A stretch of DNA of 64,000 nt from Candidatus Cloacimonadales bacterium (GTDB lineage Bacteria; Cloacimonadota; Cloacimonadia; Cloacimonadales; JAFGVF01), in contig CAXXOU010000003.1 in the NCBI GenBank assembly GCA_963677495.2, positions 160,001-224,000 on the forward strand, written 5' to 3'. A model generated the notes under the pieces. That model did no database searches. It was not told the origin of the DNA and saw only the letters and a list, made by a program, of their open reading frames with translations. Positions within the stretch are counted from its first letter, which is position 1. Each line of letters opens with the position of its first letter. A program made the position numbers and the translations under genes. Below, one piece after another: positions 4,067-60,948 of the stretch.

Positions 4067-4192
4067 CTCCCGCTATGCTCCCGAATATTCGGATAAACTT
4101 CGATAAACTTTCGATACTGTTACGGAAAACTTTGGCATTTGCCTAAGATTTCCCTAAGAGGTGCTAAGATACACCTAGGTTATCCCTAAGAA
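4067..4192. repeat. 11-bp-period degenerate tandem array
   Basis: CTCCCG at 4067/4078; TTCG at 4088/4099/4110, TACG at 4121; CTA(A/G)G at 4143/4154/4164/4175/4186. Confidence 0.7.
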
Positions 4193-4774
4193 TTATTCCA
4201 GTGCGTAGAGGGGGAGATATGGGTAAATACCCACATAGCAGAAATTAGTCGGGTGCATGTCTACCGAATGTGAAGTATCCACACGTGCTCCTCCCCCTGA
4301 CCACTCGGGGACCTCCCCCGCCTACCCCCGAGAGGCCTTCGGGAGGCTCGGGAGCAAAGTAGGTGTGGATATCAGACTTTCAATAGAGATCTAACAGAAT
4401 AAAACGAGTGACCCTTTAAGGGCATCTCAACATCATTTAACCATCATCGCTCTGTTACAATTATCATTCATCTCGAATGAGACACCTGTTGAATCCCTAT
4501 TGAAATGTTGTTATTCTTTAACAGGTTATAGACTCGAATTTGATAAGATTGAAATATCTGATGAATAATAATTATAGCAGTGCTGTAGCAGTTTACCAAT
4601 CTGGGGAGTCCTTTCTCCCCTTAGTTTGTTTTTTATCTTATTCAGTAAAACTGAGAATAGTTCTGAGAGGACTTTCAAGCGCTTTGCGAAGGGGATATAA
4701 CTCCTTTAAAATAGTGTTACACATTCAGTTCCCAGAAAATTTTTGGGAAGAAAATGAGAAAAAGCTTGACGGAT

Positions 4775-4790
4775 AGTTCGATATAGAACT
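4775..4790. promoter_or_regulatory. Putative MarR operator 1
   Basis: Palindrome AGTTC-GATATA-GAACT just after TTGACG (4766-4771) and directly upstream of marR; near-identical copy at 5248. Confidence 0.7.
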
Positions 4791-4799
4791 TATGGAGTC

Positions 4800-5231
4800 A
4801 TGAATAAGAATTACTCAAGCACGATTGCTCTGATATCAGAGATTAAAGAAAATGCAAATCGGTTTATTGTGAACCGATTGAAGGAAGTGGGAGTTGAAGG
4901 ACTCGTAGCTTCTCATGGATCCATACTTGTACTTCTGTATAAGAAAGGTCCTTGCAGAATGAATGATATCGCAAAGGCAATCAAGCGAAAGAAGAATACA
5001 GTCACAACCCTGATAACCAAGCTCGTTAACTACGGTTATGTGGAAGTTTTGGCTGACCCTTCCGATAGTAGAGTAAAAGTTGTGACCCTAACAGCAAAGG
5101 GAATGGATATTAAAGCTGACTTCTTTGGCATAGCCGAGGAGTTAATTGAGAAAACTTATGCAGGTATCGAAGAGGATAGAAGGGAAGAGTTCGCAGCAGT
5201 GCTATCAAAAATCAGAGATAACCTAGCATAA
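4800..5231 (+). CDS. MarR family transcriptional regulator
   Basis: 143 aa; KNTVTTLITKL...GYVE....SDSR...V.LTAKG winged-helix signature. Confidence 0.9.
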   Translation: MNKNYSSTIALISEIKENANRFIVNRLKEVGVEGLVASHGSILVLLYKKGPCRMNDIAKAIKRKKNTVTTLITKLVNYGYVEVLADPSDSRVKVVTLTAKGMDIKADFFGIAEELIEKTYAGIEEDRREEFAAVLSKIRDNLA

Positions 5232-5247
5232 AAAAATTTAAGAGAAA

Positions 5248-5263
5248 GGTTCGACATAGAACT
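5248..5263. promoter_or_regulatory. Putative MarR operator 2
   Basis: GGTTCGACATAGAACT, 14/16 identical to 4775-4790, just upstream of the next gene's RBS. Confidence 0.7.
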
Positions 5264-5276
5264 AAAGGGGTGTACA

Positions 5277-6101
5277 ATGAGAAGAATTATTCTAGTATTA
5301 ATCACAATACTAATTATAAGTAAATTAACAGGAGTTGAAATGAAAGGACAAATAGTTACAGCTGAGACAGAAGGAATTAAGATTCATAGCTATATCGGAT
5401 ATAGTGGAGATGTGTCAAACATAATTGAAACCGTAGATGCACTTATTCTGCTTGATGAACAACCAACTTTATCTGCCGGCAAAGAGCTTAGAGAGTATAT
5501 TAATGGATTAAACAAACCCCTAACTGATGTGATTATTCCAAGTCATGGAATCGGAATAAATGACTTCGGTGTTGAAGTTCTCGGAACAAAACCAATGCTT
5601 CAGTTCATCGAAAGTGGAGCGGCTAGCGGTTTCATCGAAGCATTTACTCAGAGATTTGGTGAGGATATGAACACAAATCTTCTTACTTTGAAACCTACTT
5701 TGGTAGAAGGAGAGAACAAGATTGGCAACTTGAAAGTAAGGGTAAAAACACATGTTAAGGATTATCCACCATGCTCTGATCTCTACTTCCTTGATGGGAA
5801 AGTTGTGTTTACTCATTTAGCTGCAAATCACACCCATCTGCTTATGTCCAACCCCGAAGAAGTGAATGAACTAACCAAGTTCTGGGAAAGCATTCAAGAC
5901 GCGGAATATGTTATGTCATCACACTTCGGTGTTATCGGCAAGGATGGTATTGTATATACATTAGAGTATGTAAAGAAAGCAGCAGAAGTATATAATAGTG
6001 CTGAATCCAAAGAGATGTTTATGCAGAAGATGGGTGAAGCATATCCCGATGCCGGACTTGATTTCTTTCTAGGAATGACAGCGGATAATTTCTATAAGTA
6101 G
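5277..6101 (+). CDS. Exported protein, probable degenerate metallo-beta-lactamase fold
   Basis: Signal-like N-terminus; SNIIE....LILLD, LNKPL..VII.SH and ..SSHFG pattern resemble the MBL fold, but no HxHxDH motif. Confidence 0.5.
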   Translation: MRRIILVLITILIISKLTGVEMKGQIVTAETEGIKIHSYIGYSGDVSNIIETVDALILLDEQPTLSAGKELREYINGLNKPLTDVIIPSHGIGINDFGVEVLGTKPMLQFIESGAASGFIEAFTQRFGEDMNTNLLTLKPTLVEGENKIGNLKVRVKTHVKDYPPCSDLYFLDGKVVFTHLAANHTHLLMSNPEEVNELTKFWESIQDAEYVMSSHFGVIGKDGIVYTLEYVKKAAEVYNSAESKEMFMQKMGEAYPDAGLDFFLGMTADNFYK

Positions 6102-6118
6102 CAGTATAGATTTAGAGG

Positions 6119-6148
6119 AAGCCTTCTGCAAATGCAGAGGGCTTTTTT
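6119..6148 (+). terminator. Rho-independent terminator
   Basis: AAGCCTTCTGCA-AA-TGCAGAGGGCTT followed by T tract. Confidence 0.85.
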
Positions 6149-6205
6149 GCATTCAGATAAAGGAATAGCTAGAATTATCTTGACTGTATAGGAAGACCCT
6201 ACAGA

Positions 6206-6219
6206 ACTGACCAGTCAGT
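6206..6219. promoter_or_regulatory. Putative TetR operator
   Basis: Palindrome ACTGAC-CA-GTCAGT downstream of TTGACT (6180-6185) and just before the tetR RBS. Confidence 0.65.
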
Positions 6220-6237
6220 ACTAAAGAGGAGCTAGAC

Positions 6238-6816
6238 ATGGCTAAAGATAAACGAGAAGCAATCTTGAAAGCAGCGGAGAAGATAATTAAAACTAAGCGT
6301 TTCCATGAAGTAAAAGTTGAAGATATTGCAACAGAAGCAGGTGTCGGAAAAGGCACAATTTATAGATATTTCAAGGATAAAGAAGAGCTTTATCTTGAAG
6401 TTGCTTTTGATGGTTTTATTTACATCACTGAGAAGTTGAATACTCTCTCACGTAAAGAGCTTAGTTTTACTGCAAAGCTACTTGAGATGTCTACCTGCTT
6501 CGAGAAGTTTGCAACCGGAAGAAGACCTGTTATGCGTGTTATGGATGAGATTCTTAACTTCGATAAAAGATTGGCAAAGTGTTATCGAACCCGACTTAGA
6601 GAACTCAAACGTGAGAACCGGGGAGCATTCAGGACACTCTTTCAGCAGGGACTGGATAACGATATTCTGCTCTTGGATATTACTGCTGCCCAGTATGCTG
6701 AATATTGGATTCATCAACTCATCGGCTTATCACATTTCCCTTCTGATGTTGAGAGAGTACCACTTGAAAAGCTGATTAAGTTACATTTGGGATATAACTA
6801 TGACAGCAATGAATGA
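6238..6816 (+). CDS. TetR/AcrR family transcriptional regulator
   Basis: KREAILKAA...VEDIATEAGVGKGTIYRYFKDKEEL HTH. Confidence 0.95.
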   Translation: MAKDKREAILKAAEKIIKTKRFHEVKVEDIATEAGVGKGTIYRYFKDKEELYLEVAFDGFIYITEKLNTLSRKELSFTAKLLEMSTCFEKFATGRRPVMRVMDEILNFDKRLAKCYRTRLRELKRENRGAFRTLFQQGLDNDILLLDITAAQYAEYWIHQLIGLSHFPSDVERVPLEKLIKLHLGYNYDSNE

Positions 6817-8158
6817 TTTCGAGAATGCTCCACCATGGAGACTCCTTTTAAAGTACTCAATCCCATCCATAGTAGCATCAAGTGTACAAGCTATTTATAA
6901 TATTGTTGATAGAATCTATATCGGGAAAGCACTCGGAACAGATGCACTTGCCGGTTTAACTCTGACTTTCCCTATCTTCATTCTATCGATTGCAATTGGC
7001 GTACTGCTTGGTAATGGTTCTTCATCAATTATCTCTATCAGATTAGGTGAGAAGAATAAGGAATCTGCAGAACAGACTTTGGGTAATACCTTCGGCCTCT
7101 TCGGGATTTTTGGCATAATAGTTTCGGTCTTGGGTGTTATCTTCATAAAACCGCTTTTAACGCTTGTTGGTGCAACAGAAGTGACAATGCCTTATGCCTA
7201 CAATTATCTGATCTGGTTCTTACCATTCATGATGTTTGACTTTATGGCAATGGGAACGAACGGTTGTATCAGAAGTGAGGGAAACCCTAACTTAGCTATG
7301 AAGATAGCAGTTACAGGTGCTTTAATCAATATTGTCCTTGATCCTATCTTCCTTTTTGGTTTCAACATGGGTGTAAAAGGTGTAGCCATAGCTACGGCAA
7401 TTGCCAGAATCTATACTGCCGGAAGCGTGATTTACCACTTTACTCTAAGCAAGAATCACTACTTAAAACTCAAAAGAGTTAATCTATTTCCAAAGTGGCA
7501 TATCGTAAAACCGATGCTAGCTATCGGAGTATCTCCCTTCAGTATGAATCTAGCTACTACATTGGTAGCAGTGTTTACTAATAGAGCATTACTTGCACAT
7601 GGAAATGACGTAGCACTTGGAGCATTAGGAGCAATCCAAAGTATCTTTATCATGATAGAGACACCACTTCGTGGCCTAATGATGGCAGGTCAGCCCATTA
7701 TCGGATTCAACTACGGTGCAAAAGTTTATGACAGAGTTAAGAAGACATTGCAGGTTTCATACCTATACTCTTTAGTAATCTCAAGCATCGGGTTTTTTGT
7801 TATTTTCATATTCGGAAGGTTCATGGTTTCACTCTTCAGTAAGGGTGATTCAAACCTAATTGATATTGGTTATAATGGCCTGCGAATCTACATGCTGATG
7901 ATACCACTTGTTGGGCTTCACATGATGTCAGTCATGTACTTTCAGGCTATAAATAAGCCGGCAAAAGCGATCATACTCAACCTGCTGAGAAAAGTAATCA
8001 TATATCTGCCACTTCTCGCGATATTGCCACGTTATTTTGGTTTAAACGGGGTATGGGGAACTGTACCTGTATCTGATTTTTTAGCAACGGTAGTAGCACT
8101 TGCATTTATCTATAATGAGTTTAAATCAGAGAAGATGGATTTGAGTCTTGCCGGATAG
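6800..8158 (+). CDS. MATE family efflux transporter (MepA-like)
   Basis: YNIVDRIYIG, IRSEGNP, NIVLDPIF..G..GVAIAT, QPIIGFNYGAK; 12-TM size. Confidence 0.92.
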   Translation: MTAMNDFENAPPWRLLLKYSIPSIVASSVQAIYNIVDRIYIGKALGTDALAGLTLTFPIFILSIAIGVLLGNGSSSIISIRLGEKNKESAEQTLGNTFGLFGIFGIIVSVLGVIFIKPLLTLVGATEVTMPYAYNYLIWFLPFMMFDFMAMGTNGCIRSEGNPNLAMKIAVTGALINIVLDPIFLFGFNMGVKGVAIATAIARIYTAGSVIYHFTLSKNHYLKLKRVNLFPKWHIVKPMLAIGVSPFSMNLATTLVAVFTNRALLAHGNDVALGALGAIQSIFIMIETPLRGLMMAGQPIIGFNYGAKVYDRVKKTLQVSYLYSLVISSIGFFVIFIFGRFMVSLFSKGDSNLIDIGYNGLRIYMLMIPLVGLHMMSVMYFQAINKPAKAIILNLLRKVIIYLPLLAILPRYFGLNGVWGTVPVSDFLATVVALAFIYNEFKSEKMDLSLAG

Positions 8159-8162
8159 ACAA

Positions 8163-8834: not shown

Positions 8835-8892
8835 AAGTAAACTCCAATACCAAAAATGAAACACAACAAACTTGATTGTCAATAGATATGTG

Positions 8893-8920
8893 AAAAGCCT
8901 GCCGAATATACGGCAGGCTT
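8893..8920 (-). terminator. Rho-independent terminator
   Basis: AAGCCTGCCG-AATATA-CGGCAGGCTT with A-run on the + strand, right after the stop at 8940. Confidence 0.75.
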
Positions 8921-8939
8921 CATAAGTTTATATCAGTTT

Positions 8940-11826: not shown

Positions 11827-11871
11827 AACCAACATAGCATCCTGCTCATTTTCACCTTTTACTACACAATC

Positions 11872-11968
11872 GCTCCACGTTAGAAACACGTTACAAGAGA
11901 TGGGAATTGGATTAGAATTAGATGATTAAAAGATGCAAAATCTATTTCCTTTAAAAGTGGGCACTTTC
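11872..11968 (+). repeat. Dispersed repeat family B, copy 1
   Basis: 97-bp ungapped match to 60733-60829 (about 76/97 identical by hand count). Confidence 0.8.
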
Positions 11969-17730: not shown

Positions 17731-17881
17731 CACTCTAAAGCACTTAGTTCCCTTATTGTTAAACAAACTGATTCCCATTAGATTATAATGCTGTCATCTT
17801 AATAGAAGTTGGATTAGAATTGAACTTTATCTATACTTTATCTAAACACATCCTCCCTTACGTCCCTTTACTTAATCCCAT

Positions 17882-17996
17882 CAAAACGCTAGAATCTCGC
17901 TAGTCCCACCCTTTAGCCTCCCTAGACCCTCCCTATGAAACCCTAAAGTTATCCACATCATGTGCATAACTTATTTAACGGTGCAAAGAAGTTCTT
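17882..17996 (+). repeat. Dispersed repeat family A, copy 1 (phased CCCT motifs plus inverted DnaA-box-like pair)
   Basis: 115 bp, about 92-93% identical to 36465-36549+38917-38946 and to 54026-54140 (-); TTATCCACA 17949-17957, TGTGCATAA 17961-17969. Confidence 0.92.
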
Positions 17997-18054
17997 GATG
18001 CGATTAAGTAAAGAGAAGCAGTTGACGAGGTAAGAATAATACAAGAATAATTGC

Positions 18055-30190: not shown

Positions 30191-30763
30191 CGAATGTACT
30201 GCGATTCTCCTGATTTGCTGTGCCGACAAAGTCGGCAACTTCCACTGACCGGACATAGAAACCATAAGTATGAACGAAGAGCTAAGTTTTTGATTATACA
30301 TGCCATTACTATTACCAGAGCACGATTGGCTTCCCGAATATAGCTCTAGCGAGCTATGTGCAAGTGGGGACACTTGCACTACGAATGTACTGCGATTCTC
30401 CTGAATTGCTGTGCCGACAAAGTCGGCAACTTCCACTGACCGAACATAGAAACCATAAGTATGAACGAAGAACTAAGTTTATGATTATACATGCCTTTAC
30501 TATTACCAGAGCACGATTGGCTTGCCGAATATAGCTCTAGCGAGCTATGAGCAAGTGGGGACACTTGCACTACGATGTACTGCGATTCCCCTGAATTGCT
30601 GTGCCGACAAAGTCGGCAACTTCCACTGACCGGACATAGAAACCATAAGTATGAACGAAGAGCTAAGTTTATGATTGTACATGCCATCACTATTACCAGA
30701 GCACGATTGGCTTCCCGATTATAGCTCTAGCTAGCTATGTGCAAGTAGGGACACTTGCACTAC
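30191..30763. repeat. Three tandem 191-bp units, each an inverted REP-like doublet with internal hairpins (BIME/REPIN-like)
   Basis: Units start at 30191, 30382, 30573; hairpins GCGATT..AATTGC, GCCGAC-AAA-GTCGGC, ATAGCTC..GAGCTAT, GTGCAAGT..ACTTGCAC-TAC. Confidence 0.92.
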
Positions 30764-36309: not shown

Positions 36310-36385
36310 CATTTCAGCATTGAACATTCAACATTCAGCATCCAGCATTCAGCATTCAGCATTTAGCATTTAGCATTTAGCATTT
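36310..36385 (+). repeat. Heptamer tandem repeat CATT(C/T)AG, about 10 degenerate copies
   Basis: ..cattcaa cattcag catccag cattcag cattcag catttag catttag catttag cattt. Confidence 0.85.
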
Positions 36386-36464
36386 CTTCAATTTTCTTTG
36401 CATCTCTGCTACAAGTCTTACTTTGTTATCATCAACCTAGATCCTTCTCTTTATCTAATCTTTA

Positions 36465-36549
36465 CAAAACGCTTGAATCTCGCTTGTCCCACCCTATAGC
36501 CTCCCTAGACCCTCCCTATGAGCCCCTAAAGTTATCCACATCGTGTGCA
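36465..36549 (+). repeat. Dispersed repeat family A, copy 2, left part (interrupted by IS21)
   Basis: Matches the first 85 bp of 17882-17996; continues at 38917. Confidence 0.92.
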
Positions 36550-36602
36550 TGTCAATGGCATTTTAAATTGGTACAGTTTGGCATTTAAAAATGGTACAGT
36601 CT

Positions 36603-37334
36603 TCATTTTTGAAAATTCCTTAGTCTAAAGCTGTCTCCGAGCATTGTAATTGGTTGTGAGTGATGGAGTAATCTATCAAGAATAGCAGTTGCTATCACAT
36701 TGTCGTTAAAAATAGCTCCCCATTCATTAAACAACCTATTCGATGTTATGATTACTGATCTAAATTCGTATAAGAGATGGATGAGTCTAAAGAACAGATT
36801 AGCTGCCTTTGTCTGGAGAGGAAGATACCCCATCTCATCTATAACTATCAGATCATTCTTGGCTATATTGCTTAGATATTTATCTATGTTGTTATCTGCT
36901 TCAGCTAGTACAAGTTCTTCGATAAGGTTGTTCAGATTATAAAACACCACCTTATATCCTGCCTTTATTGCTTCATAACTGAGTGCTGTTGCAACATGAG
37001 TCTTACCTACTCCCGGAGGTCCCATTAAAATTATATTCCTCCTCTGCTCCAGCCAGACAAAGTTCTTCCACTCCTTTACTTGTCTTTTGGTTATTACTTG
37101 TTGATAAGCATAGTCGAACTCATCAAAGGTCTTTATTACCGGGATGTGAGCCTGTTTAAGTCTTCTGTTGATATTGGTTTGATTCCTTCCTGAGTTCTCT
37201 TTTTCAAATAGATAATGTACGAACTCCAGATAAGTCATATTCTGTTTCTCTGCTTCTAAAACTGCACTTTCAAGAGTATTCAAAATATGAGTACAACGAG
37301 CCCTTTTGATGTATGTTTTAGTTATCTCTATCAT
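36603..37334 (-). CDS. istB: IS21 helper ATPase IstB
   Basis: GPPGVGKTH, LIVIDEMGYLP, YE.RS.IITSN..F.EWG.IF....ATAILDRLLHH, GDSFR. Confidence 0.97.
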   Translation of the reverse strand: MIEITKTYIKRARCTHILNTLESAVLEAEKQNMTYLEFVHYLFEKENSGRNQTNINRRLKQAHIPVIKTFDEFDYAYQQVITKRQVKEWKNFVWLEQRRNIILMGPPGVGKTHVATALSYEAIKAGYKVVFYNLNNLIEELVLAEADNNIDKYLSNIAKNDLIVIDEMGYLPLQTKAANLFFRLIHLLYEFRSVIITSNRLFNEWGAIFNDNVIATAILDRLLHHSQPITMLGDSFRLRNFQK

Positions 37335-37335
37335 C

Positions 37336-38811
37336 TTATAACACCTTCATGTAGTCATCTAATGAGCGCTCTATTAATGAACTCTCTGAGTCTTGTTGTG
37401 GTTCTGATTCTGATAATTCATTTAGCTTCATTTGTCTTACTTTTGCATTCAGAAGCTTCTCTATGGCTGTTGCCTTTACATGCGAAAGAGTCATTACCTC
37501 AGGAAGCACTGACTCCCATACATCTGTTTCATAGTTACGCTTAAACTTGCTTAAGGCTCTCAACTGATCCCTTGCTATTTTAGGGTTATCATTAACAAGC
37601 CTCTGGATTAGTTCTTCTCCTTGGATATATTCACTCATCTCATCCTTTACTCGCTCAATAAGCTCTTGTAGCACTACCGTAAAATCCCGATAATGATTAG
37701 TGTTTTTGATGATTTTGCCTTTTTCTGTGCATAGCTCATGTTGGCAGATTTCCTTTCTTGTATAAATATCCATCACCACTAAAGTGCTCTTTTCTTTTTG
37801 CACATATACCTGTTTTCGCTGATACTCTAATGGAACAGAGTACTTATTACCCTCATACGAGATTAAGCCTGTTTTATCTGCATTACGAACTTCTAAAGTG
37901 AAGATAAACTCTGGAATATCTTTTAGCTTTAACCTCTCTTCTTGCCATACTTCTGATGGTACTTTACGGGTTGTGCCATGGGTTCTGCCGTTAAAGTGTA
38001 AAAGCCACTCAAGTCCGCGTGAACGCAGGTCTGCCAGGTCTTTGAACTCTTTGCCATACATAAAGCCATGCTTTACTTCTGAGACATTACGCTCTACTTT
38101 ACCCTTGCTTTGTGGATCATAGCCTTCGCATACATGAGGATGAAAGCCCGTTTTTGCTGCAAACTGATGGAACTGATTATTTAAGATTACTTCCCGATAG
38201 CGTTCCTGTATTACTACAAGCTTTGTCTGGTCGTAAACACACTCTGAAGGGATACCTTCAAAATAGATAAAAGCTTCACGATGAGCTTCAATAAACCTTG
38301 ATGTGTTATATGGTGTTGTGCTCCAATGGACATAGCTTTGACGCGAGTGGGAAAGCACAAAAACTATAAAATAAACTCTTTGACGTTTATTACCCAAAAC
38401 TACTTTCATCTCACCTGGATCAACTTGAACCTGAACACCGGGAGCCGTCTCGATTACTGCATAATTACGGTATTTATCGACAGGATAAGTCTGCTTTAGC
38501 TTACGAACAAAATCTCGGAAAGCTCTGTCTTTTGCTTTTATCTCAGGGAACTTTTTCTTAACTTCTAAATATAGTACACTAGCTCTTAATCGTGGATATT
38601 TGCTAAGCCTTTCGCGGACATATTGCTCACATATGGCAAAACTGCTTTCACGAATGCTATTGTTTATTAGTTCCATGAACTCATCAAGTGTCATATTTAT
38701 GTATTTACCTACTGTTGTCTTTGATAGAGACAACTCCTCTGCGATCTTACGCTGACTATGCCCTTGCTTATGCATAGTTTTTATTGAATGATACACTTCT
38801 ACTCCAATCAT
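37336..38811 (-). CDS. istA: IS21 transposase IstA
   Basis: HTH SQRKIAEELSLSKTTV.KY; ETAPG.Q.QVD, F..VLSHSR, GIP.E.VYD, PQSKGKVE, YSVP; ATG 38811 with GGAG RBS. Confidence 0.97.
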   Translation of the reverse strand: MIGVEVYHSIKTMHKQGHSQRKIAEELSLSKTTVGKYINMTLDEFMELINNSIRESSFAICEQYVRERLSKYPRLRASVLYLEVKKKFPEIKAKDRAFRDFVRKLKQTYPVDKYRNYAVIETAPGVQVQVDPGEMKVVLGNKRQRVYFIVFVLSHSRQSYVHWSTTPYNTSRFIEAHREAFIYFEGIPSECVYDQTKLVVIQERYREVILNNQFHQFAAKTGFHPHVCEGYDPQSKGKVERNVSEVKHGFMYGKEFKDLADLRSRGLEWLLHFNGRTHGTTRKVPSEVWQEERLKLKDIPEFIFTLEVRNADKTGLISYEGNKYSVPLEYQRKQVYVQKEKSTLVVMDIYTRKEICQHELCTEKGKIIKNTNHYRDFTVVLQELIERVKDEMSEYIQGEELIQRLVNDNPKIARDQLRALSKFKRNYETDVWESVLPEVMTLSHVKATAIEKLLNAKVRQMKLNELSESEPQQDSESSLIERSLDDYMKVL

Positions 38812-38909
38812 ACCTACTCCAAACTGTCTTGAAGTAGTCATTTTTAAAGGTTGGCAGTTTTGTACCACTTTTCACTGCCATCGTGTACCATTTCTCACTG
38901 CCATTGACA

Positions 38910-38946
38910 GTGTGCATAACTTATTTAACGGAGAAAAGAAGTTCTT
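38910..38946 (+). repeat. Dispersed repeat family A, copy 2, right part (includes target duplication)
   Basis: GTGTGCA-TAACTTATTTAACGG...AGAAGTTCTT matches 17960-17996. Confidence 0.9.
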
Positions 38947-39019
38947 GAAGTAGGACATAGAGGAAGTGAAGCACAAGTAGTGTTATGTTAGTTAATTAGT
39001 GCAGGTCTTGAGAGATGTA

Positions 39020-39104
39020 ACTTGCACCGCAACGAAGTGTGGGGCGAGGTGTCAGGCTTCAAGGTAACCATTCCCGCCCCATGCTACGCTACGGTGCAGG
39101 TCTG
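39020..39104 (+). repeat. Hairpin repeat C, copy 1 (upstream of FG-GAP gene)
   Basis: ACTTGCACCG..TGGGGCG..CGCCCCA..CGGTGCAGGT; direct repeat of 40849-40947. Confidence 0.85.
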
Positions 39105-39210
39105 ATGCGAATGTGGAGCAAGGAAATAAAGAACTTGCCAGTATTAGTCAATGTTTTAATATTCAATCGTAATTAATAGATATGTAGTTAGAACTCCAGC
39201 GGAGGATGAT

Positions 39211-40839
39211 ATGAAAATAGGTAGAAAACACTCTTTTTTAATGCACTTAATTCTTTTAATAGCGATAAGCACACTCTTTGCAGAGAATTCAATGGAACTA
39301 ATCTGGGAGAGCCAAGGAGAGCATCCGGACTCTGAGTATGGTTCCTCAATGACATCTTTGGATTTTAATGGTGATGGTATTGATGACTTGGTAGTTGGTT
39401 CAAGGTCTTATGAACCAGGTGAAACCCCATCTTTACTCGGTAAGATTTATTTCTATTATGGGGGGGGTAATTTTTCAACAACCCCTAATCTAACTATTAC
39501 CGGAGCTTATGCAAGTTATACTGGAGTCTCGTTACACAACTTTGGAGATGTAAATGGTGACGGTTTTGATGATCTTGGTCTTTATCACTATGTATCCAAT
39601 TATGATATAAAAGCTGTTATCGATATTTACTATGGAGGAGTAAATTGTGATACAATCCCGGATTTTAGCTATGATGTTATGCGTGGAACAGGAGATGATG
39701 AGATAGAAGATATTTTTTCACTCTATCCTTTAGGTGATATTAATGGAGATGGTTGTTCTGATGCAGGATATGTTCTTCTAGGTATGAGTCACGTAAATCC
39801 CTTTTCTCATTTCTATATTATATATGGTGATGAAGTGGACCCCTATGTAGATTTCTGGAAAGATACAGGTCCATATCGTAATGGAGATGTCATTAGCGGA
39901 AGTTCAATACGAGAGATAGGTGATATCAATAGTGATGGATTCGATGATTTTATTGTTGGCTATTTTGATGCTGAAGACCTGTTAATCAAAAACTCAATTA
40001 TCTATGGTGCAACTGTGGTTGATACAATTTTAACGAACATTGTTTTTCAAGGTACTAACTTTCTACCGGGTGGAGTTGCTTGCGGAGACATGAATGGAGA
40101 TAGTGTTGATGATTTCATTGGAGCTAAAAAATATGCTGGTACATGCCCGGGAATATGGCTGGGTGGGAATCAAAGCAATGTAGTACCTGATATTCACTTA
40201 TCAAATTATGGGCAATATAACAATGGAATAGCACATGGTGATTTGAATGGAGATGGTTATTCAGATTTAGTGATTGGTAGTCCTTGCTGGAGTTTAGATC
40301 AGGGAAAGGTCTATTTCTTCTTTGGGCATGAAGACCCCAATGGACTGCGGGATTATGAAATTGAAGCCCCTATCATAAACCATTCTGAATTTGGGACTTC
40401 CGTTGCAATTGGTGATTTTAATAGTGATGGATATGATGATACAGCAGTTGGGGCTCCCGGCACAGGTACAAATTATGCTGGACATGCCTATGTATATGCC
40501 GGCGATGCATCATTGTATGATACTACAGTATCAATCTCGGATGATACAATTCCTGCACCTTATGGAGTTGAGTTTACAGCATATCCAAATCCCTTCAATC
40601 CATCAGTGCAATTCAGTGTAAAGACAGATAAAGAGTATAATAAACTTGAAATACAGATTTATAATGTGAAAGGACAACTTGTAAATATACTTAATGCAAG
40701 TAAAACTCAAAAGGAGCAATCAGTTACTTGGGATGGAGTCGATAGTAAAGGTAATAAGGTAGCTTCCGGAGTATACCTATGTAAGCTAACCTTCGGGAAT
40801 ACTATTTTAAGTTCTGTTAAGGTATCTTTGATAAAATAG
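39211..40839 (+). CDS. Secreted FG-GAP (integrin-like beta-propeller) protein with C-terminal sorting domain
   Basis: Seven D.NGDG.DD-type repeats; FG..VAIGDFN.DGYDD.AVGAP; AYPNPFNP...SGVYL. Confidence 0.9.
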   Translation: MKIGRKHSFLMHLILLIAISTLFAENSMELIWESQGEHPDSEYGSSMTSLDFNGDGIDDLVVGSRSYEPGETPSLLGKIYFYYGGGNFSTTPNLTITGAYASYTGVSLHNFGDVNGDGFDDLGLYHYVSNYDIKAVIDIYYGGVNCDTIPDFSYDVMRGTGDDEIEDIFSLYPLGDINGDGCSDAGYVLLGMSHVNPFSHFYIIYGDEVDPYVDFWKDTGPYRNGDVISGSSIREIGDINSDGFDDFIVGYFDAEDLLIKNSIIYGATVVDTILTNIVFQGTNFLPGGVACGDMNGDSVDDFIGAKKYAGTCPGIWLGGNQSNVVPDIHLSNYGQYNNGIAHGDLNGDGYSDLVIGSPCWSLDQGKVYFFFGHEDPNGLRDYEIEAPIINHSEFGTSVAIGDFNSDGYDDTAVGAPGTGTNYAGHAYVYAGDASLYDTTVSISDDTIPAPYGVEFTAYPNPFNPSVQFSVKTDKEYNKLEIQIYNVKGQLVNILNASKTQKEQSVTWDGVDSKGNKVASGVYLCKLTFGNTILSSVKVSLIK

Positions 40840-40848: not shown

Positions 40849-40947
40849 ACTTGCACCGCAGTGAGCAGTATTGCTGTGAATGTGGGGCGAGGTGTAAGGC
40901 TTCGAGTTTATCATTCCCGCCCCATGCTACGCCACGGTACAAGTCTG
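40849..40947 (+). repeat. Hairpin repeat C, copy 2 (downstream of FG-GAP gene)
   Basis: ACTTGCACCG..TGTGGGGCGAGGTGT.AGGCTTC..CATTCCCGCCCCATGCTACGC.ACGGTACAAGTCTG. Confidence 0.85.
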
Positions 40948-41111
40948 GTACGTTCATGGTTTTCCTAAAACATCAAACACTAACTCCCATATTTCCAACG
41001 ATTTTTATTGACCTCTTCTTTTTTCTTGATTATATGGCATATAGTCATAAAATATATAAATTTAAACCTTTAGAGATATCAAATAGAAAATAAATAATAA
41101 AGGAGAATTCA

Positions 41112-53960: not shown

Positions 53961-54025
53961 GCATAGTCTAAAAGAACCTATAAAATCAACTATGTCCTAA
54001 CTACGTCTCTGGTACGAACCGCATT

Positions 54026-54140
54026 AAGAACTTCCTTGCACCGTTAACTAAGTTATGCACACGATGTGGATAACTTTAGGGGTTCATAGGGAGGGTCTAG
54101 GGAGGCTAAAGGGAGGGACAAGTGAGATTCTAGGTTTTTG
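54026..54140 (-). repeat. Dispersed repeat family A, copy 3 (intact)
   Basis: Reverse complement matches 17882-17996 without gaps; TTATGCACA 54053-54061, TGTGGATAA 54065-54073. Confidence 0.92.
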
Positions 54141-54306
54141 AAGCAGCACGTAGCAGACTTGTACCAGAGATGCAAAGATGCAAAGATTGTCTAATTAAAT
54201 CAAAAATTGAGATAAGATATGTTAATCCGCTGATTTACTCTATTGATTAATATTGACATAAGAATTAATCCTTACTTAATGGATTATATTTTTTTAGGAG
54301 GATTAT

Positions 54307-55509: not shown

Positions 55510-58500
55510 TTATTTAAGTAGGGCAGCCTTTCTAACAGCTGTATATCCTTTAGTATTCATTCTAAAGAAATAGATACCACTGCTACAAGCGTTACCATTA
55601 TTATCTCTACCATCCCAAACAACTATGTTCTCACCCTTAGGTTTGAGACCGTCGTGGAGAACAGAAATGAGTTCACCCTTAATGTTGTATACGCTAACTC
55701 TTACATCTTCCTCTTCTTTCATAGTGAAAGAAACTTGAGTTGTAGGGTTAAATGGATTAGGATAAATAGACTTCATAGTAGTTACAAGCTGTACTTCCGG
55801 TGTATCTGGTCCATCAACTTCTTCGATTGTTATTTCAACAGGTCCGAAGAATTTGCTGATACCATCAATTGAAACACTCTCAAGCCAGTAGTAGAAAGTC
55901 TCTGCTAACTCAACTTCTGTGTCATTATAGCTATATGAATGCTGTGAAGCTTCGTTTTCAGCAATAATGATTTCACTATTAATTTGATAGATGTCTTCTA
56001 CTTGGTCTGTGTTATTACGGTATACGTTGTATCCTGAGATATTGCTTTCAGACTCAACGATCCATTCAAGTTGAACAAATGTGCCTTCATCATTAGAAGT
56101 TAATGTTGTAGCAGCAAAGCTAGTCAACTGAACAGGAAGTGCATTATCATTATCAATATCATTTTCGTTATCTTGGTTTGGAGTAGGAGTAGCAGCTGGA
56201 GTCCAGTCTGTTGCTACATCATCACCATTAGATTCTGCATCTTTACGCTCATATATTGTTCCAACAGTTGCTCCACTTGTTGCAGAACCGAATTGGTCTA
56301 CTATACTCTTTGAAATACCATCATCAAGGTATATCCAAGAACCATTAACAATCTGAGGGACATCTGTGCTTGCAACATAATCACCAATAAATGATGGATA
56401 TGCAAGCATGAAGTCTGCATAAGTAGTATTGAAGATTGTTACATAATCTCCTGGATATAGAAGATAGCTGGAACCCATGTTAGTGTCTAGACCAACAGCG
56501 AACTGTACAGATTCAAGCGGAGAAACCTGATGTAAAGTCCATCCGAGTAATGATTGAGTAATTGTACCGGCGTTATATAACTCAACGTATTGAGTAGTTC
56601 CGGTATTTACTTCAGAAATTATCACATTAGACTCAACAGGACCAACAAAGAAGTTATCAATTAAGATATACCAGTCACCTGTTCCTCGTGCACAATCAAA
56701 ACGGAATTTTACATCATTACCAACAAAAGCAGCAAGAGGAACTTCTACTTTTGCCCAACCAGTTGATGTTGTATGTGTAGTCTCATCAACTGTATAGATA
56801 GGTGTATAAGTATTCCCGTCATCTGTAGATGCAGCAAGAACGATTTGATCTCCAGATCCAAGTGTTGTTGCATTATTTGGTGCACCAGAATAGTCTACAA
56901 TTCTGTAATAATAGTAAACATAATCATTAGCATCAATATTAGTCACATTCTCTAATTCTGCATAGCAAGTTGGAGTGCTACTCCAAAGATTCTTATACAG
57001 TGTATTTGATCCTGCAATACCCCAAGATGTTCTAACGCTCATATTTGTATCCCATTTATCAGGAACTGATGTGCTCCAGTCAAATGTTTGAAGGTATGGT
57101 GGTTGAATACGAGGGTCAGCTTGAGTTGTGATAGACCAAACAGGACAATTAACAGCATTACCTGCAGCATTATGTGGTACAACCTGCCAGTAGTAAGTTG
57201 TTAAGTAAGATAGACCTGAATATGTATAGCTTAAATCAGTGCTATTGTCATGCATATTAAGTACGTTTGTTGGAGGGTTATCTGTACCGAAGTTTAGATA
57301 GTATCCATCTGCTAAAGTACTAGCATCCCATATCAAAGTACCATTTACAGGTGCTTCAACGTAGCCGTCAGCAGGTTCTGGATTAGTTGCGGGATCTGGA
57401 ACTGATGAAGTTGTTGTGAAACTCCATACAGCATTACCAGTTGCATTACCGTTAGCATTAAATGGAACGATCTGCCAGTAATACGTAGTTCCTGTATTTA
57501 ATCCTGAATAAGCATAAGTATTTGTGATACCTTGATCAGCATTACTCATTATATTTGTAGGTGGGTTATCTGTACCGAAGTTTAGATAATATCCATCTGC
57601 TAGACTAACAAATGTCCATTCTAAGTTACCTGTTAATGCAACATCGGTTGCTGCATCAGCTGGAGAAACTAAAGTTGTTGCAGCAGGTGGGTTTACATTA
57701 TCAAAGATTCTAATGTCATCAACACTGATATCACCTTCATAACTTGAACTTTCCATTGCTCTAAAATCTATGCTAATTGTTTGTCCTGCGTATGTATTTA
57801 AAGCAACATTTGCTTCCTGCCAGCCTAAACTACCACTAGCATCGGTAAGAACAGCAACTGAAGCGTCTGTACCTGTACCGGTAATAACATCAATGTGAAG
57901 TTCAGAAGTATTACTATTATCTCCAATCCAATACCAGAAATTCAATATTGGGTTTGTTAAGGTACTCATATCGAAATCAGGTGAGTAGAGATGTGCAGGT
58001 ACAGTTTCAGGTGTAGAGTCATCTATGACAGCCATATAGCCACCATTTCCTGTATGCTCTGCTGTTGCACCATGACCACCTAACTCAGTGTTACCAATTT
58101 CCCAGCTATCACCTGATACGATTGGATCAATTGTCCAAGCAGGATGAAGTGTAGCTGTATCGAATGAATATGTGTAAGGGAAGCTTGTAACTGTATTTGC
58201 ATAAGTTGTGAATGACCAAACAGGACAACCTGCCGCTGGTCCAACACCATTATAAGGAACTACTTGCCAGTAATATGTTGTTCCGTTAGCCAAACCTGTA
58301 GCGGAGTAAGTCAAATCAGTACCATTATCAGTACCATTTTCCACATTTGTTGGAGGATTATCAGTACCGAAGTATAAATAATAACCTGCTGCTCCAGTTG
58401 AACTATTCCACTCTAAGGTAAGGTCAACTTCTGTTTCAGTAGCTTCATCTGCTGGAGATACTAAAGTAACAGGTCTAGGAGCATTACCAACTATTGAGAA

Positions 58501-60297
58501 GCTCCATACTGAAGAAGCAGTTGCATCACCGTTATAATTGTAAGAAACAACTTGCCAATAATATGTAGCACCTGCAGTTAGTCCGGAATAGGAATATGTT
58601 AAAACATCACCTTGATCAACACCATTAAGAACGTTTGTTGGAGGGTTATCTGTACCTAAGTATAAGTCATAACCTGATGCTAAATTAGCAGCATTCCACT
58701 CAAGAGTACCTGAGTCAGGTTGATCGCCAGCAGCATCTGTTGGTGCAACTAAAGTTGTAGGATCAGGTAATGTAGCATCTCCGGTTCCTGTTACAGCAAC
58801 GGTTTGGGTTGCTCTTGTAGTATTGTCTACAATCACAACATTGTCACTAAGAGCACCACCAACTGTTGGAATAAAGTTTACATCAAATGTAGCACTAATT
58901 CCAATACCAAGAGTGAGAGGATAGCTATTAGCATCTACTATACCAAAATCAGTTCCTGTTTGCATTGCAATAGAGCTAATTACTAAATCAGCTCCACCAA
59001 CGTTTGTTATTGTGAAAGTTTTAGAAGTTGTTGTACCATTTAACTGTGTACCAAAGTCCCAACTTTCAGGGTTAATAGAGAAAACTGGGGTAGTTGGAAC
59101 TGCACCAAACTCCATTCTAATGTTTGGAATGTATGCTTTAGCATTTCCAGCAGGAGGACTAGCAGGATCTGGATTATTACTGTCATTATGATATTCATAT
59201 GATCTATTACCTGTTACAGTTGAGCAAAAGAACTCGTCACTACTAGTATCGTATCCTGAAGCATTATCTTCGATTGCTATAACCAAATTGTCTATGTTAT
59301 TGTAAACAAATGGTAAGGCTAACGGTAACTCTATCCACATGTCTGAATCAGGAACTGGGTCAAGAGTTATACTTGCAACTTGGGTTAAATTTGCTAGTGG
59401 GATCCAATCTGTTAGCTCTGTAGCTGATGTATGTCCCATATACACAACCCAATCTGTAGTTGCACTCAAATCTGATCCACCGTTATAATGATACCAGATT
59501 TTTTCAATTCTTTCACCACTTCTATCTATCTCAGACTGCAAATAGATAGATTGAGAATATGAGTAACCATAATACGGCTCAACAGGTAAAGATTGATTTG
59601 TAACAGTTTCTGCACCAATTTCAACAATATTGGCACCAAGTACAGTTGTAAAAGAATAAACTGAGCCATCAGTTGTAAGCCTAGCTACACTGTTTTTTGA
59701 TAAAACATACCAATAGTAGGTTGTGTTTGTGCTTAAATCTGAGCTTGGAGTATAGGAACCTGTAGCTCCGGCAGCTCCATCTGTTACAACTTGTGCTACT
59801 GGTGGATTGACAGTATCAAAATAGAGATCATAAGTCTCTGTATTTGCACCAAAATCCCAAGTAATTGTTGGTAATACTGCTACACTAATAGCACCATCAA
59901 TTGGACTAGGGTTAGATACTGCTGCAGGTGCACTAGCACTTGGAACAACTATTGGTGTAGTAATGCTACCTGGAGTAGCTCCACCTGTACCCTCTGATGC
60001 TACTAAATTTGAATTTTGATCATAAATGTAGTATTCATTTTCTGTGGACCATGAACCTGCACTGTACGATGTTGTGATCTCATCTCCACCTGCTACAGTT
60101 AGAGTATGGTTTTCTGGACCACCACCACTTGATATTGTTAGACCGGATAACACGGTAGTACCATTAACACTAACGTCAAGGGCGCCACCATTCCATCCAT
60201 CTCCGTAAGTATCAATCAGCGTAACTGTCCAATCAACAGAAAAAGCTGTAGATACAAACAAGATGAACATGAATAAAAACAAAATCGTTTTCTTCAT
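55510..60297 (-). CDS. Large secreted surface protein: five FN3-like repeats, ASH/choice-of-anchor-D-like, MAM-like and lamin-tail-like domains, C-terminal sorting domain
   Basis: Repeats P.D....L.W....GY.L.FGTDNPP....TYYWQVVP.N..G.....WSFTT; FTITNVGGADL.I; IISEVN....VELYN; YPNPFNPTT...SGIYF...RKAALLK. Confidence 0.85.
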   Translation of the reverse strand: MKKTILFLFMFILFVSTAFSVDWTVTLIDTYGDGWNGGALDVSVNGTTVLSGLTISSGGGPENHTLTVAGGDEITTSYSAGSWSTENEYYIYDQNSNLVASEGTGGATPGSITTPIVVPSASAPAAVSNPSPIDGAISVAVLPTITWDFGANTETYDLYFDTVNPPVAQVVTDGAAGATGSYTPSSDLSTNTTYYWYVLSKNSVARLTTDGSVYSFTTVLGANIVEIGAETVTNQSLPVEPYYGYSYSQSIYLQSEIDRSGERIEKIWYHYNGGSDLSATTDWVVYMGHTSATELTDWIPLANLTQVASITLDPVPDSDMWIELPLALPFVYNNIDNLVIAIEDNASGYDTSSDEFFCSTVTGNRSYEYHNDSNNPDPASPPAGNAKAYIPNIRMEFGAVPTTPVFSINPESWDFGTQLNGTTTSKTFTITNVGGADLVISSIAMQTGTDFGIVDANSYPLTLGIGISATFDVNFIPTVGGALSDNVVIVDNTTRATQTVAVTGTGDATLPDPTTLVAPTDAAGDQPDSGTLEWNAANLASGYDLYLGTDNPPTNVLNGVDQGDVLTYSYSGLTAGATYYWQVVSYNYNGDATASSVWSFSIVGNAPRPVTLVSPADEATETEVDLTLEWNSSTGAAGYYLYFGTDNPPTNVENGTDNGTDLTYSATGLANGTTYYWQVVPYNGVGPAAGCPVWSFTTYANTVTSFPYTYSFDTATLHPAWTIDPIVSGDSWEIGNTELGGHGATAEHTGNGGYMAVIDDSTPETVPAHLYSPDFDMSTLTNPILNFWYWIGDNSNTSELHIDVITGTGTDASVAVLTDASGSLGWQEANVALNTYAGQTISIDFRAMESSSYEGDISVDDIRIFDNVNPPAATTLVSPADAATDVALTGNLEWTFVSLADGYYLNFGTDNPPTNIMSNADQGITNTYAYSGLNTGTTYYWQIVPFNANGNATGNAVWSFTTTSSVPDPATNPEPADGYVEAPVNGTLIWDASTLADGYYLNFGTDNPPTNVLNMHDNSTDLSYTYSGLSYLTTYYWQVVPHNAAGNAVNCPVWSITTQADPRIQPPYLQTFDWSTSVPDKWDTNMSVRTSWGIAGSNTLYKNLWSSTPTCYAELENVTNIDANDYVYYYYRIVDYSGAPNNATTLGSGDQIVLAASTDDGNTYTPIYTVDETTHTTSTGWAKVEVPLAAFVGNDVKFRFDCARGTGDWYILIDNFFVGPVESNVIISEVNTGTTQYVELYNAGTITQSLLGWTLHQVSPLESVQFAVGLDTNMGSSYLLYPGDYVTIFNTTYADFMLAYPSFIGDYVASTDVPQIVNGSWIYLDDGISKSIVDQFGSATSGATVGTIYERKDAESNGDDVATDWTPAATPTPNQDNENDIDNDNALPVQLTSFAATTLTSNDEGTFVQLEWIVESESNISGYNVYRNNTDQVEDIYQINSEIIIAENEASQHSYSYNDTEVELAETFYYWLESVSIDGISKFFGPVEITIEEVDGPDTPEVQLVTTMKSIYPNPFNPTTQVSFTMKEEEDVRVSVYNIKGELISVLHDGLKPKGENIVVWDGRDNNGNACSSGIYFFRMNTKGYTAVRKAALLK

Positions 60298-60732
60298 ACA
60301 CTTTTCTCCTTTTTAATTTTCCTCCAAAAATAAGTACCCTATGGTACCCTTCAATAACAGATTAAAGATTAATTCATCTATATTTGTGAAGTTCCTCTTT
60401 AATACTTTATATATAACTAAACAAAAATAGACTTTGCTTAACAGTATGTCAACATAAATGTTGTACAACTAGAATAGTAACCAAGACAAACTTACGATCT
60501 TGGAAAAGTTTCCAAGAGCATACCGCTTGTATTTTTCGGTGTTTAGAGTAAACAGTGTTAACTTTTTGAAAATCCAGCAACGATACTTCTTTTTTAGCAT
60601 CTATCTTTAACAATCTTATACATCATAGTCAAATTATGGATGTCAAACCTCAGATTCTGTCACGTTGATACAATGAAATCAACCTAGTCTCATCCTTTTA
60701 ATCCACATCTGCTTCCCCTTAGCTTCCTGTTA

Positions 60733-60829
60733 GCTCCCCGTTAGAAACTCGTTACAGGAGATGGGAATGGGGTTAGACCTAGATGGGTTAAAGAACCCTG
60801 AGCTATTTCTCTTAGAAGAGTGCACTTTC
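60733..60829 (+). repeat. Dispersed repeat family B, copy 2
   Basis: Ungapped match to 11872-11968; preceded by two extra 11-bp units GCTTCCCCTTA GCTTCCTGTTA. Confidence 0.8.
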
Positions 60830-60860
60830 CGATACGAACCAAGCATACCAATGGTATTCC

Positions 60861-60948
60861 TTACCACGGGTCAACCACGGGTCTCCCATAGGTTAACCAC
60901 GCCTCCCGTGGTTTGGGCGTGGTTTAACCGTGGTTGATCCGTGGTTAA
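60861..60948. repeat. Symmetric 8-unit, 11-bp-period array (4 forward + 4 inverted)
   Basis: ACCACG at 60863, 60874, 60896 (degenerate CCCATA at 60885); CGTGGTT at 60907, 60918, 60929, 60940. Confidence 0.85.

Follow-up and report, generated by a model that had tools for sequence, protein, structure and literature searches.

We describe here a class of short tandem arrays with an 11-bp unit, first noticed in a 64,000-nucleotide stretch of a Candidatus Cloacimonadales genome (G000:C3:160001-224000, hereafter the window) and recurring throughout the intergenic DNA of that genome (G000; 3.41 Mb, 4 contigs, 37% G+C). The genes of the window are ordinary: by Pfam they encode Por_Secre_tail secreted proteins, two-component kinases, a phosphate ABC transporter, one copy of an IS21 insertion sequence (IS) and ruvB, and over the whole window Rfam at gathering thresholds returned 0 matches and ARAGORN no tRNA genes. 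The encoded RuvB shares 96% identity with RuvB from a Candidatus Cloacimonadales chromosome, and the 80 relatives retained in that comparison are without exception Cloacimonadota or metagenome-assembled genomes of uncultured bacteria. A preliminary description of the window had proposed that its intergenic spacers follow a common grammar, in which arrays of different core motifs share one period and homologous repeat copies differ in length by whole helical turns. We find that the arrays are the interiors of dispersed repeat elements, some palindromic and some resembling MITEs (miniature inverted-repeat transposable elements), and that their period of exactly 11 bp is kept across families with different words.

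Repeat A occurs three times in the window. Its copy 1 (17848-18031, + strand) is MITE-like, with an array at 17887-17948, a DnaA-box-like palindrome at 17949-17969 and terminal inverted arms, and has up to 42 BLAST matches; copy 2 is divided by the IS21 element into a left part (36446-36549, + strand), with an array at 36492-36518 and a palindrome at 36532-36552 that the IS interrupts, and a right part (38910-38948, + strand); copy 3 (53999-54141, - strand) lies in reverse orientation, with its array at 54087-54116 and its palindrome at 54053-54073. Repeat B belongs to the CGTTA family and has two copies on the + strand, one with two 11-bp units (11855-11965) and one with four (60694-60800, units at 60711-60754). 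A palindromic array without assigned strand at 60863-60946 consists of ACCACG four times and then CGTGGT four times, again at 11-bp spacing, and belongs to the CCACG family of about 40 loci. At 4067-4192 (+ strand) lies a low-copy chain of short 11-bp-period arrays (CTCCCG twice, TCGATAAACTT three times and CCTAAGA four to five times), with tandem-repeat calls at 4092-4116 and 4137-4159 and a folding z-score of -2.4; unlike most arrays of the genome, this chain has fewer than three BLAST matches elsewhere in intergenic DNA. Two short arrays of two to three units each had also been claimed within 4423-4514 (+ strand), and these are weak, near chance.

At all six arrays named in the preliminary description, lag 11 is indeed the best of lags 5-18, with identities of 56/115 at 4067-4192, 11/14 at 4423-4447, 10/18 at 4486-4514, 29/51 at 17887-17948, 25/33 at 60711-60754 and 44/73 at 60863-60946, although these coordinates had been picked by eye, so that the statistics are post hoc. 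The arrays at 4423-4447 and 4486-4514 are the weak ones, and neither is found among the tandem-repeat calls or the strict arrays defined below. The first three of the six lie in 1.7 kb of DNA that holds no convincing gene (3131-4799), where the segment 3209-4002 is repeated up to 29 times elsewhere and a GC-rich segment at 4273-4372 stands between the inverted words GTATCCACAC and GTGTGGATAT.

The period is evident once the intergenic DNA is taken as a whole. In the 7.8 kb of intergenic DNA of the window, 94 five-mer matches fall at lag 11, against 12.1 +/- 4.7 (maximum 30) in 200 dinucleotide shuffles, while lags 9, 10, 12 and 13 give 17, 34, 15 and 11; strict arrays, in which a five-mer recurs at lag 11 across at least 27 bp, number 4 where 0.06 are expected. 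Genome-wide autocorrelation against shuffled sequence, the check that the preliminary description had proposed, bears this out: over 441 kb in 1087 intergenic regions, the lag-11 value for five-mer matches is 10.6e-3, compared with 1.5e-3 in 5 dinucleotide shuffles, a 7-fold excess, and harmonics follow at lag 22 (6.3e-3) and lag 33 (3.7e-3). The neighbouring lags show no peak (2.4e-3 at lag 10, 1.95e-3 at lag 12), and the intergenic period is exactly 11, not 10.5. In coding DNA, the same autocorrelation returns the 3-base codon period only, with no 11-bp signal.

Tandem Repeats Finder (TRF) gives a concordant picture. Used at score 30 with a crude mask of open reading frames (ORFs of at least 100 aa, chosen greedily), which left 13% of the genome unmasked, it lists 2012 rows, 554 of them with period 11. 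Rows in intergenic DNA number 446 for period 11, compared with 65 for period 10, 21 for period 12 and 75 for period 22, and running TRF on the intergenic file alone yields nearly the same counts (445, 66 and 20 for periods 11, 10 and 12), whereas two dinucleotide shuffles of that file contain 19 and 21 period-11 rows. The 352 strict arrays of the genome comprise 326 intergenic and 26 coding ones, and those in intergenic DNA merge to 239 loci. Of these, 112 lie between tandem genes, 91 between divergent and 35 between convergent ones; they are not confined to gene ends, and spare only about 140 bp before gene starts and about 80 bp after gene ends (10th percentiles).

The arrays are, however, not a property of spacers as such, and here the preliminary description holds for the period and not for a grammar of spacers in general: 198 of the 239 loci (83%) lie inside sequence with at least 10 BLAST matches, a further 19 have 3-9 and 20 have 0-2, those in unique sequence being mostly marginal. 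Intergenic DNA of this genome is rich in repeats, 158 of 493 kb (about one third) being repeated at least 3 times. Clustering on the arrays alone yields 36 clusters, seven of which hold at least 3 loci. Seven large families each have a word of their own (CACTG, CCACG, CCAAG, CCCTCCCTA, CGTTA, CCCGAGA and TCATA), and all are built of 11-bp units. By array loci the families rank as CACTG (61 loci) and CCACG(GG) (40 loci), both with two opposed arrays forming a palindrome, followed by the CCAAG (31), CCCTCCCTA (30), CGTTAGCTCCC (22), CCCGAGAGA (16) and TCATATAGG (7) families. The conserved, family-specific word of a unit shows at least 1 bit at 6-10 of its 11 positions and varies at the remainder, and each element holds 2-5 such units head to tail.

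The elements themselves are short (about 154-190 bp), non-coding and dispersed, with 7-61 array loci per large family. Repeat A, of about 154 bp, has terminal inverted arms of about 28 bp, with 7 arm pairs lying about 154 bp apart, and encloses an array of CCCTCCCTA type that runs in one direction, a palindrome at its centre and a stretch rich in A+T. Family B, with GACCCTCTCGTG units, repeats this layout in 158 bp, with arms of about 23 bp or more; 16 of 24 copies were anchored, 15 of these at 158 bp and the other at 157 bp. Terminal inverted repeats of CCCCCATTCAAT type mark a third, small family. Of the 70 adjacent inverted array pairs, 52 are of CACTG type and about 16 of CCACG type. Importantly for what follows, the one-directional arrays examined in the window do not fold (z -0.4 for Repeat A copy 1 and -0.2 for the CGTTA copy at 60711-60754), which argues that the phase is not a property of hairpins.

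Length changes between related copies follow the same unit. The preliminary description had predicted indel peaks at multiples of 11 bp, and these appear genome-wide across 8862 homologous intergenic pairs: indels of 11 bp number 191 (at 123 distinct sites), and those of 10 and 12 bp 16 and 17; for 22 bp the count is 16, with 3 and 2 at the flanking lengths of 21 and 23 bp; and for 33 bp it is 19, with 7 and 1 at 32 and 34 bp. The peaks are gains and losses of whole 11-bp units. In the window itself, the three length differences that had suggested helical turns fare unevenly. The 22 bp by which Repeat B copy 2 exceeds copy 1 is a true unit change, the distance from CCTTTT to GCTCC being 33 bp in one (60694-60737) and 11 bp in the other (11855-11876), with two GCTyCCnGTTA units gained. 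For Repeat A, the lengths of 26 and 4 bp between GTTCTT and TAGGACATAG are correct, yet they reflect a different end module and not 11-bp units; the lengths of 46 and 14 bp between the shared 24-mer and the core are likewise correct, but their difference of 32 is not a multiple of 11 and stems from an extra terminal module. One of the three window indels is therefore a true unit change, and it is the genome-wide spectrum that carries the indel claim.

To place the signal phylogenetically, we used the lag-11 ratio, that is, intergenic lag-11 five-mer matches divided by the median of the other lags, in 200-kb samples of 12 other genomes (for G036 we took ten 20-kb pieces from three contigs, and for G010 the initial 20 kb of each of ten contigs). 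The ratio is 5.0-5.6 in G000 and 3.0 in G048 of the same genus; in other genera of the same family it is 1.5 (G084), 1.2 (G044) and 1.0 (G085). Elsewhere it reaches 3.8 in G012 (another family), 3.3 in G019 (a third family) and 2.0 in G003 (another family), and stands at 1.3 (G036), 1.0 (G020), 0.9 (G032) and 0.9 (G010) in genomes of other families and at 1.1 in a genome of another order (G002). Four other genomes of the order, G048, G012, G019 and G003, thus have a lag-11 peak, and they have it with other words, among them GTCTCCCGTTG, TACGGTA, TCATCTAGG, CAGGGAGT, TGGGTGTCAT and AGCAATG; seven genomes have little or no such peak. Strict GC-rich intergenic arrays in the array-rich samples number 11, 21, 2, 4 and 5 at lag 11 (3 in G003), against 0-1 per sample at lags 9, 10, 12 and 13, except for G003 with 3 at lag 9.

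Between G000 and G048 the elements can be followed to some extent. Copies of Repeat A and of the CGTTA family with 81-88% identity occur in G048, and in one matched gap, that after an FKBP gene, G000 carries Repeat A and G048 a CGGGA-type array. Genes of the two genomes share about 65-74% DNA identity and synteny is broken; owing to this low identity and broken synteny, the ends of empty sites and any target duplications are unreadable in the comparison. DNA similar to Repeat A was not found in 72,556 plasmids, nor DNA similar to 60690-60950 in 50,697 phages, and the exact 22-nt Repeat A word had 0 matches in a genome contig collection that may omit G000 itself.

Taken together, these observations are best explained, and in our judgement with somewhat better than even probability, by dispersed non-autonomous elements whose arrays act as rows of same-face protein-binding sites and turn over in whole units by slippage or unequal recombination. 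The elements are small, repeated and probably mobile DNA: non-coding sequences that have multiplied in intergenic DNA, with the 11-bp rhythm as the internal design that several families share. Some families bear terminal inverted repeats in the manner of MITEs, and others consist of two opposed arrays, a palindrome like that of REPINs, the paired form of repetitive extragenic palindromic (REP) elements. By analogy with the iterons of plasmids, with R1 parC and with the low-affinity DnaA sites of oriC, the words may be bound by a sequence-specific protein or its paralogs, head to tail on one face of the helix, with one protomer or dimer per turn. Units would be gained and lost by slippage or unequal recombination, and whole-unit changes would survive because they keep the register; a trans-acting enzyme would presumably spread the elements. 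The words are conserved while the spacers drift, which argues for selection on the words, and the unrelated words of at least seven families, in G000 and in four other genomes, all recur at exactly 11 bp, which is hard to explain without a helical-phase constraint. The strongest argument is that the unit length stays exactly 11 through full turnover of the word, in one-directional arrays that do not fold, and in at least three taxonomic families. The preliminary description had left two options, selection for helical phase or a mechanism that adds and removes units of about 11 nt, and we find support for both halves; the protein filament or wrapping scaffold that it attached to the first is not supported by any identified binder.

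Several observations weigh against this explanation. As to the reader and the mover, no inverted pair of family ends lying 0.5-12 kb apart, as expected of an autonomous element, was found for Repeat A, family B or CACTG in G000; IS insertions apart, pairs of arrays or of family ends enclose no gene of G000. Few pairs are formed by the loose 13-nt C3 motif, and these enclose ordinary genes or none; in just one array pair do the partners lie over 500 bp from each other, and that pair is a CACTG element interrupted by IS21. No cognate partner gene emerged when 242 proteins encoded within 250 bp of arrays were clustered, the clusters being spurious repeat ORFs, IS genes and unrelated families only. 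As to mobility, element flanks examined for target-site duplication showed no clear direct repeat, with the exact termini uncertain because neighbouring modules are also repeated, and the 4 public runs that contain the stretch, all from one sample and none listed as RNA, have contigs that break at the repeats and show no indels, their joints looking like cross-matches between repeats, a result that bears on neither expression nor polymorphism. As to phase, the spacers of the palindromic families are 54-58% complementary, above chance, and the CCACG palindrome of the window (60858-60950) folds strongly as single-stranded DNA (ssDNA; z -8.2 and -5.5), and hairpins may have a role in that subset. 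Finally, three family words fit ACCA[AC][GT]G by eye and the central palindrome is common to four families; with such shared words and a shared palindrome, the seven families do not represent seven independent inventions of the 11-bp unit, and inheritance together with slippage could explain part of the uniformity.

Taken to its conclusion, this last point gives a neutral account, with neither function nor phase constraint, in which one ancestral element with an 11-bp unit left descendants that diverged and spread selfishly, their lengths changing by ordinary slippage. It draws on the 83% of array loci that sit in amplified families, on shared modules, including the palindrome present in at least four families and similar words such as ACCACGGGTT and ACCAAGGGTT, on unit-multiple indels, which are typical of any minisatellite, and on the occurrence of arrays in all intergenic classes, where they spare only the gene-proximal 140 or 80 bp or so, like neutral insertions. 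What speaks against it lies within and between the units: the word is conserved as the spacers drift, which indicates selection, and the period stays exactly 11 even where the words are wholly different, as they are between some families and, across three taxonomic families, between genomes. Slippage alone does not fix a unit length through full turnover of the sequence. We therefore consider a purely neutral origin unlikely.

Another account starts from the palindromic families. Here the elements would be hairpins of REP or REPIN type, read as ssDNA and moved by a REP-associated tyrosine transposase (RAYT, a Y1 HUH enzyme), and the 11-bp period would be a by-product of the hairpin arms. The 70 adjacent inverted array pairs, the fold of the window palindrome and the above-chance complementarity of spacers in the palindromic families all agree with this, and the genome does encode Y1 transposases, 5 of them RAYT-like and 7 IS200-like. 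All 12 of these genes, however, are flanked by ordinary hairpin repeats of other sequence and not by phased arrays; the single exception, one CACTG element upstream of one of them, fits chance given the 61 CACTG loci. One such ordinary repeat, a GC-rich hairpin of 72 nt, brackets an FG-GAP gene (39211-40839) in the window, at 39038-39109 and 40881-40952, and flanks a truncated RAYT-like gene at C1:229000-229407. Complementarity within the palindromes is near-perfect only at the words, 0.97-0.99 at the phased conserved positions against 0.54-0.58 at the spacers, and most array loci are one-directional and show no fold (z -0.4 and -0.2 in the two window arrays). Nor do Y1 gene counts follow the signal closely between genomes, the correlation with the lag-11 ratio being moderate (rho 0.64, p 0.035, n=11). 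That the arrays are hairpin elements moved by a RAYT seems to us rather improbable.

The relation of the arrays to insertion sequences is also reminiscent of REPs, which are reported targets of insertion sequences such as IS1397 (PMC1525189), and to that extent favours the same account. The IS21-family element of the window (36550-38909, - strand; istB 36603-37334, istA 37336-38868) interrupts Repeat A copy 2 within the palindrome, and its target duplication of 7 bp, GTGTGCA, lies at 36543-36549 and 38910-38916; it has 23-bp terminal repeats and Pfam matches to IstB_IS21 (2.2e-72), rve and Mu-transpos_C_2. The genome has 19 istA and 17 istB copies, and 7 of the 17 istB genes have an array less than 300 bp away, a larger share than the 14.8% among all genes. 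An IS3-like element occurs in six identical copies (orfA starts at C2:142625, C2:235206, C2:359505, C3:93495, C4:221018 and C4:1237849); each of them has, 54-77 bp upstream of orfA, a CCAAG-type array, and in five the insertion point within the shared element is the same. As this array lies outside the IS and varies between copies, we conclude that the IS targets the repeat, in the way that known insertion sequences target REPs.

If, as we favour, the arrays are rows of binding sites, one protein family is a possible reader. It comprises proteins of about 150 aa, annotated as hypothetical and mainly confined to Cloacimonadota, with 24 matches at 23 loci in G000 (for example C4:58745-59197) and a match in 39 of 61 genomes of the order. 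The family has no significant match in Pfam or NCBIfam; its fold is predicted with confidence (pLDDT, the predicted local distance difference test, 85.4) and has no Foldseek match against the PDB at E <= 0.001, and a wide VIA-align search gave a best Z of 4.4, with about 12 ribbon-helix-helix proteins at Z 2.8-4.2, which is below the noise level of the tool, so that no fold is assigned. A test for co-occurrence with the arrays, as had been proposed for this window, gives a correlation for this family, its copy number tracking the lag-11 ratio with rho 0.78 (p 0.005, n=11; rho 0.82, n=12 with G010), whereas genome size does not (rho 0.03); it does so barely better than the general mobile-DNA marker Y1_Tnp, and kinship among the genomes inflates all of these p-values. 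Among genera of the taxonomic family to which G000 belongs, copies number 13-24 in the one rich in arrays and 1-5 in those poor in them. Clear phased arrays, drawn from five different families, stand 150-450 bp upstream of 7 of the 23 paralogs, and weak ones upstream of a further 2; in the G019 sample, 1 of 3 paralogs has an array 248 bp upstream. This adjacency is gone once gap length is controlled, however, with 6 of 22 paralogs and 161 of 588 genes having arrays among those with upstream gaps of at least 300 bp. Paralogs are not beside arrays in the G003 and G048 samples, and G036 is an outlier with 24 divergent matches and a ratio of 1.3. That this family reads the arrays, its paralogs matched to the word families, is a sub-case of the explanation we prefer and, taken alone, a doubtful one; we regard the family as a candidate reader and nothing beyond that. 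More broadly, one may tentatively imagine an undescribed protein-plus-repeat system, in which a lineage-specific DNA-binding family (the 150-aa family or another) diversifies together with the element families, one paralog per word, with the arrays serving as nucleoprotein sites and DnaA captured by some of the families. Such sites might then act in element mobilisation, nucleoid structure or local gene control.

The part that DnaA could play rests on the central palindrome, TTATCCACA-N3-TGTGGATAA, which amounts to two perfect DnaA boxes set head to head. Intergenic DNA contains TTATCCACA 111 times (0.25 per kb) and coding DNA 43 times (0.015 per kb), a 17-fold excess in density that 5 of 6 one-letter variants do not share, the sixth, TTATGCACA, being the other half of the palindrome. 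At up to 4 mismatches there are 85 intergenic palindromes (20 perfect, 39 with one mismatch), of which 78 have a phased array within about 80 bp; the palindrome is common to at least four families that differ in arrays and ends, and the same box clusters beside dnaA on contig C1. In Repeat A, moreover, conserved 9-mers with 2-bp spacers stand, by eye, in register with the box, an arrangement with a precedent at E. coli oriC, where low-affinity DnaA sites are described as 9-mers spaced exactly 2 bp apart, on one helical face, in two opposed arrays (PMC4451416). One might thus suppose the elements to be DnaA-binding modules, in which the box pair nucleates a DnaA oligomer that extends along the array and the copies titrate or regulate the initiator like datA or DARS. 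The perfect box pairs of some families would alter the chromosome's capacity to take up initiator, with a bearing on replication control.

The distribution of the palindrome speaks otherwise. The perfect form is confined to the species, with 20 copies in G000, a single one in G048 of the same genus and none in 119 further genomes of the phylum. An intergenic excess of the box is missing from 10 of the 12 genomes sampled, and in three other array-rich genomes the perfect box is absent from the sampled intergenic DNA. We conclude that the palindrome is an add-on of the families of this species and not part of the general 11-bp design. Since, in addition, the CACTG, CCACG, CCAAG and CGTTA families are without it, and the in-phase 9-mers of the arrays, which vary from family to family, agree by eye with the DnaA box at only 2-4 of 9 positions, we hold it very improbable that DnaA binding is what the arrays are for.

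Other features of the window and of its relatives lie outside the 11-bp design. A replication origin was considered at about 38900-39200, where genes diverge and the cumulative GC skew has a local minimum, and was ruled out, as skew over the contig as a whole has its extremes at other places and the dnaA gene and its cluster of boxes are on a different contig. At 36313-36384 there is a heptamer array with TTCAGCA ten times; genome-wide, period-7 TRF rows in intergenic DNA number 95-96, compared with 16 in shuffles, and in G010, a relative without 11-bp arrays, intergenic DNA shows a strong period of 7 bp (17.2e-3 at lag 7). At 30191-30763, a 191-bp unit stands three times in tandem, 94-96% identical, with up to 63 BLAST matches elsewhere and overlapping a 103-aa ORF that is probably spurious.

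In G000, then, much of the repeated third of intergenic DNA obeys one rule, with words one helical turn apart. If a protein reads the arrays as same-face sites, the reading we prefer, hundreds of sites per genome would be held by an undescribed factor; if they are inert selfish DNA, they offer a clean case of a unit length that stays fixed amid sequence turnover. Cloacimonadota are abundant in anaerobic digesters and have, to our knowledge, no cultured model; the intergenic lag-11 score is a simple, computable marker with which to hunt for the partner gene across complete genomes of the phylum. The preliminary description knew of no named element that behaves in this way, and neither did the literature we searched: a search for Cloacimonas intergenic repeats found no relevant description, and one for 11-bp tandem repeats in MITEs or subterminal repeats found only eukaryotic cases.

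Among known phenomena, the general 10-11-bp AA/TT periodicity of prokaryotic genomes, which is tied to the helical repeat, resembles the present case in being a period of about 11 bp in bacterial DNA. It is, however, weak, diffuse and compositional, whereas the signal here is sharp at 11, non-coding and made of GC-rich words of amplified families. REPs have no 11-bp internal period that we know of. With REPs, REPINs and the bacterial interspersed mosaic elements (BIMEs; PMC3333891, PMC2817692, PMC3116915), the elements share a high copy number of intergenic palindromes, a mosaic of modules and a role as IS targets, and the CACTG and CCACG families can fold. They differ in that the RAYT-like genes of this genome stand beside other hairpins and that most arrays are one-directional and unstructured.

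The elements are likewise close to bacterial MITEs, among which the BOX elements of pneumococci contain internal tandem units: they are small, non-coding, multi-copy and intergenic, have terminal inverted repeats in two families and vary in the number of internal units. Here, by contrast, families with unlike ends and words share one exact 11-bp unit of word plus spacer, and an autonomous parent with the same ends was not found in G000. The eukaryotic elements Ac and En/Spm carry subterminal repeats that bind transposase, and so offer a likeness in short direct and inverted words inside non-autonomous elements, to be read by the transposase of an autonomous partner. They differ in being eukaryotic, and no partner transposase was found here; we also know of no strict one-turn spacing in such subterminal repeats. 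Eukaryotic MITEs that contain tandem repeats have also been reported (PMC3879986).

The closest parallels in spacing come from bacterial nucleoprotein sites. The low-affinity arrays of oriC share the 11-bp period, and four families here set arrays beside perfect DnaA boxes; at oriC the arrays nucleate from high-affinity boxes, whereas here the words are not DnaA-box-like, the box module is species-specific and the loci are dispersed and off-origin. Proteins of the OmpR/PhoB type, which bind in tandem to 11-bp direct repeats, are a further analogue. In parC of plasmid R1, two sets of about five direct 11-bp repeats each are bound with one ParR dimer per 11-bp unit on one face (PMC2241845), and runs of direct repeats at exactly 11 bp are what the present arrays have in common with it. 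That system, however, occupies one locus, beside the parR and parM genes that belong to it, whereas the present arrays form 239 loci that lack a cognate gene alongside and represent several word families, with sets both opposed and in the same direction. Like iterons, the arrays are tandem direct repeats at the spacing of a helical turn (period 11, harmonics 22 and 33). As far as the literature searched goes, the 11-bp-unit design is not yet described for Cloacimonadales; the general kind to which it belongs is already known, being that of dispersed non-coding repeats with internal tandem units and of iteron-like sites on one face of the helix.

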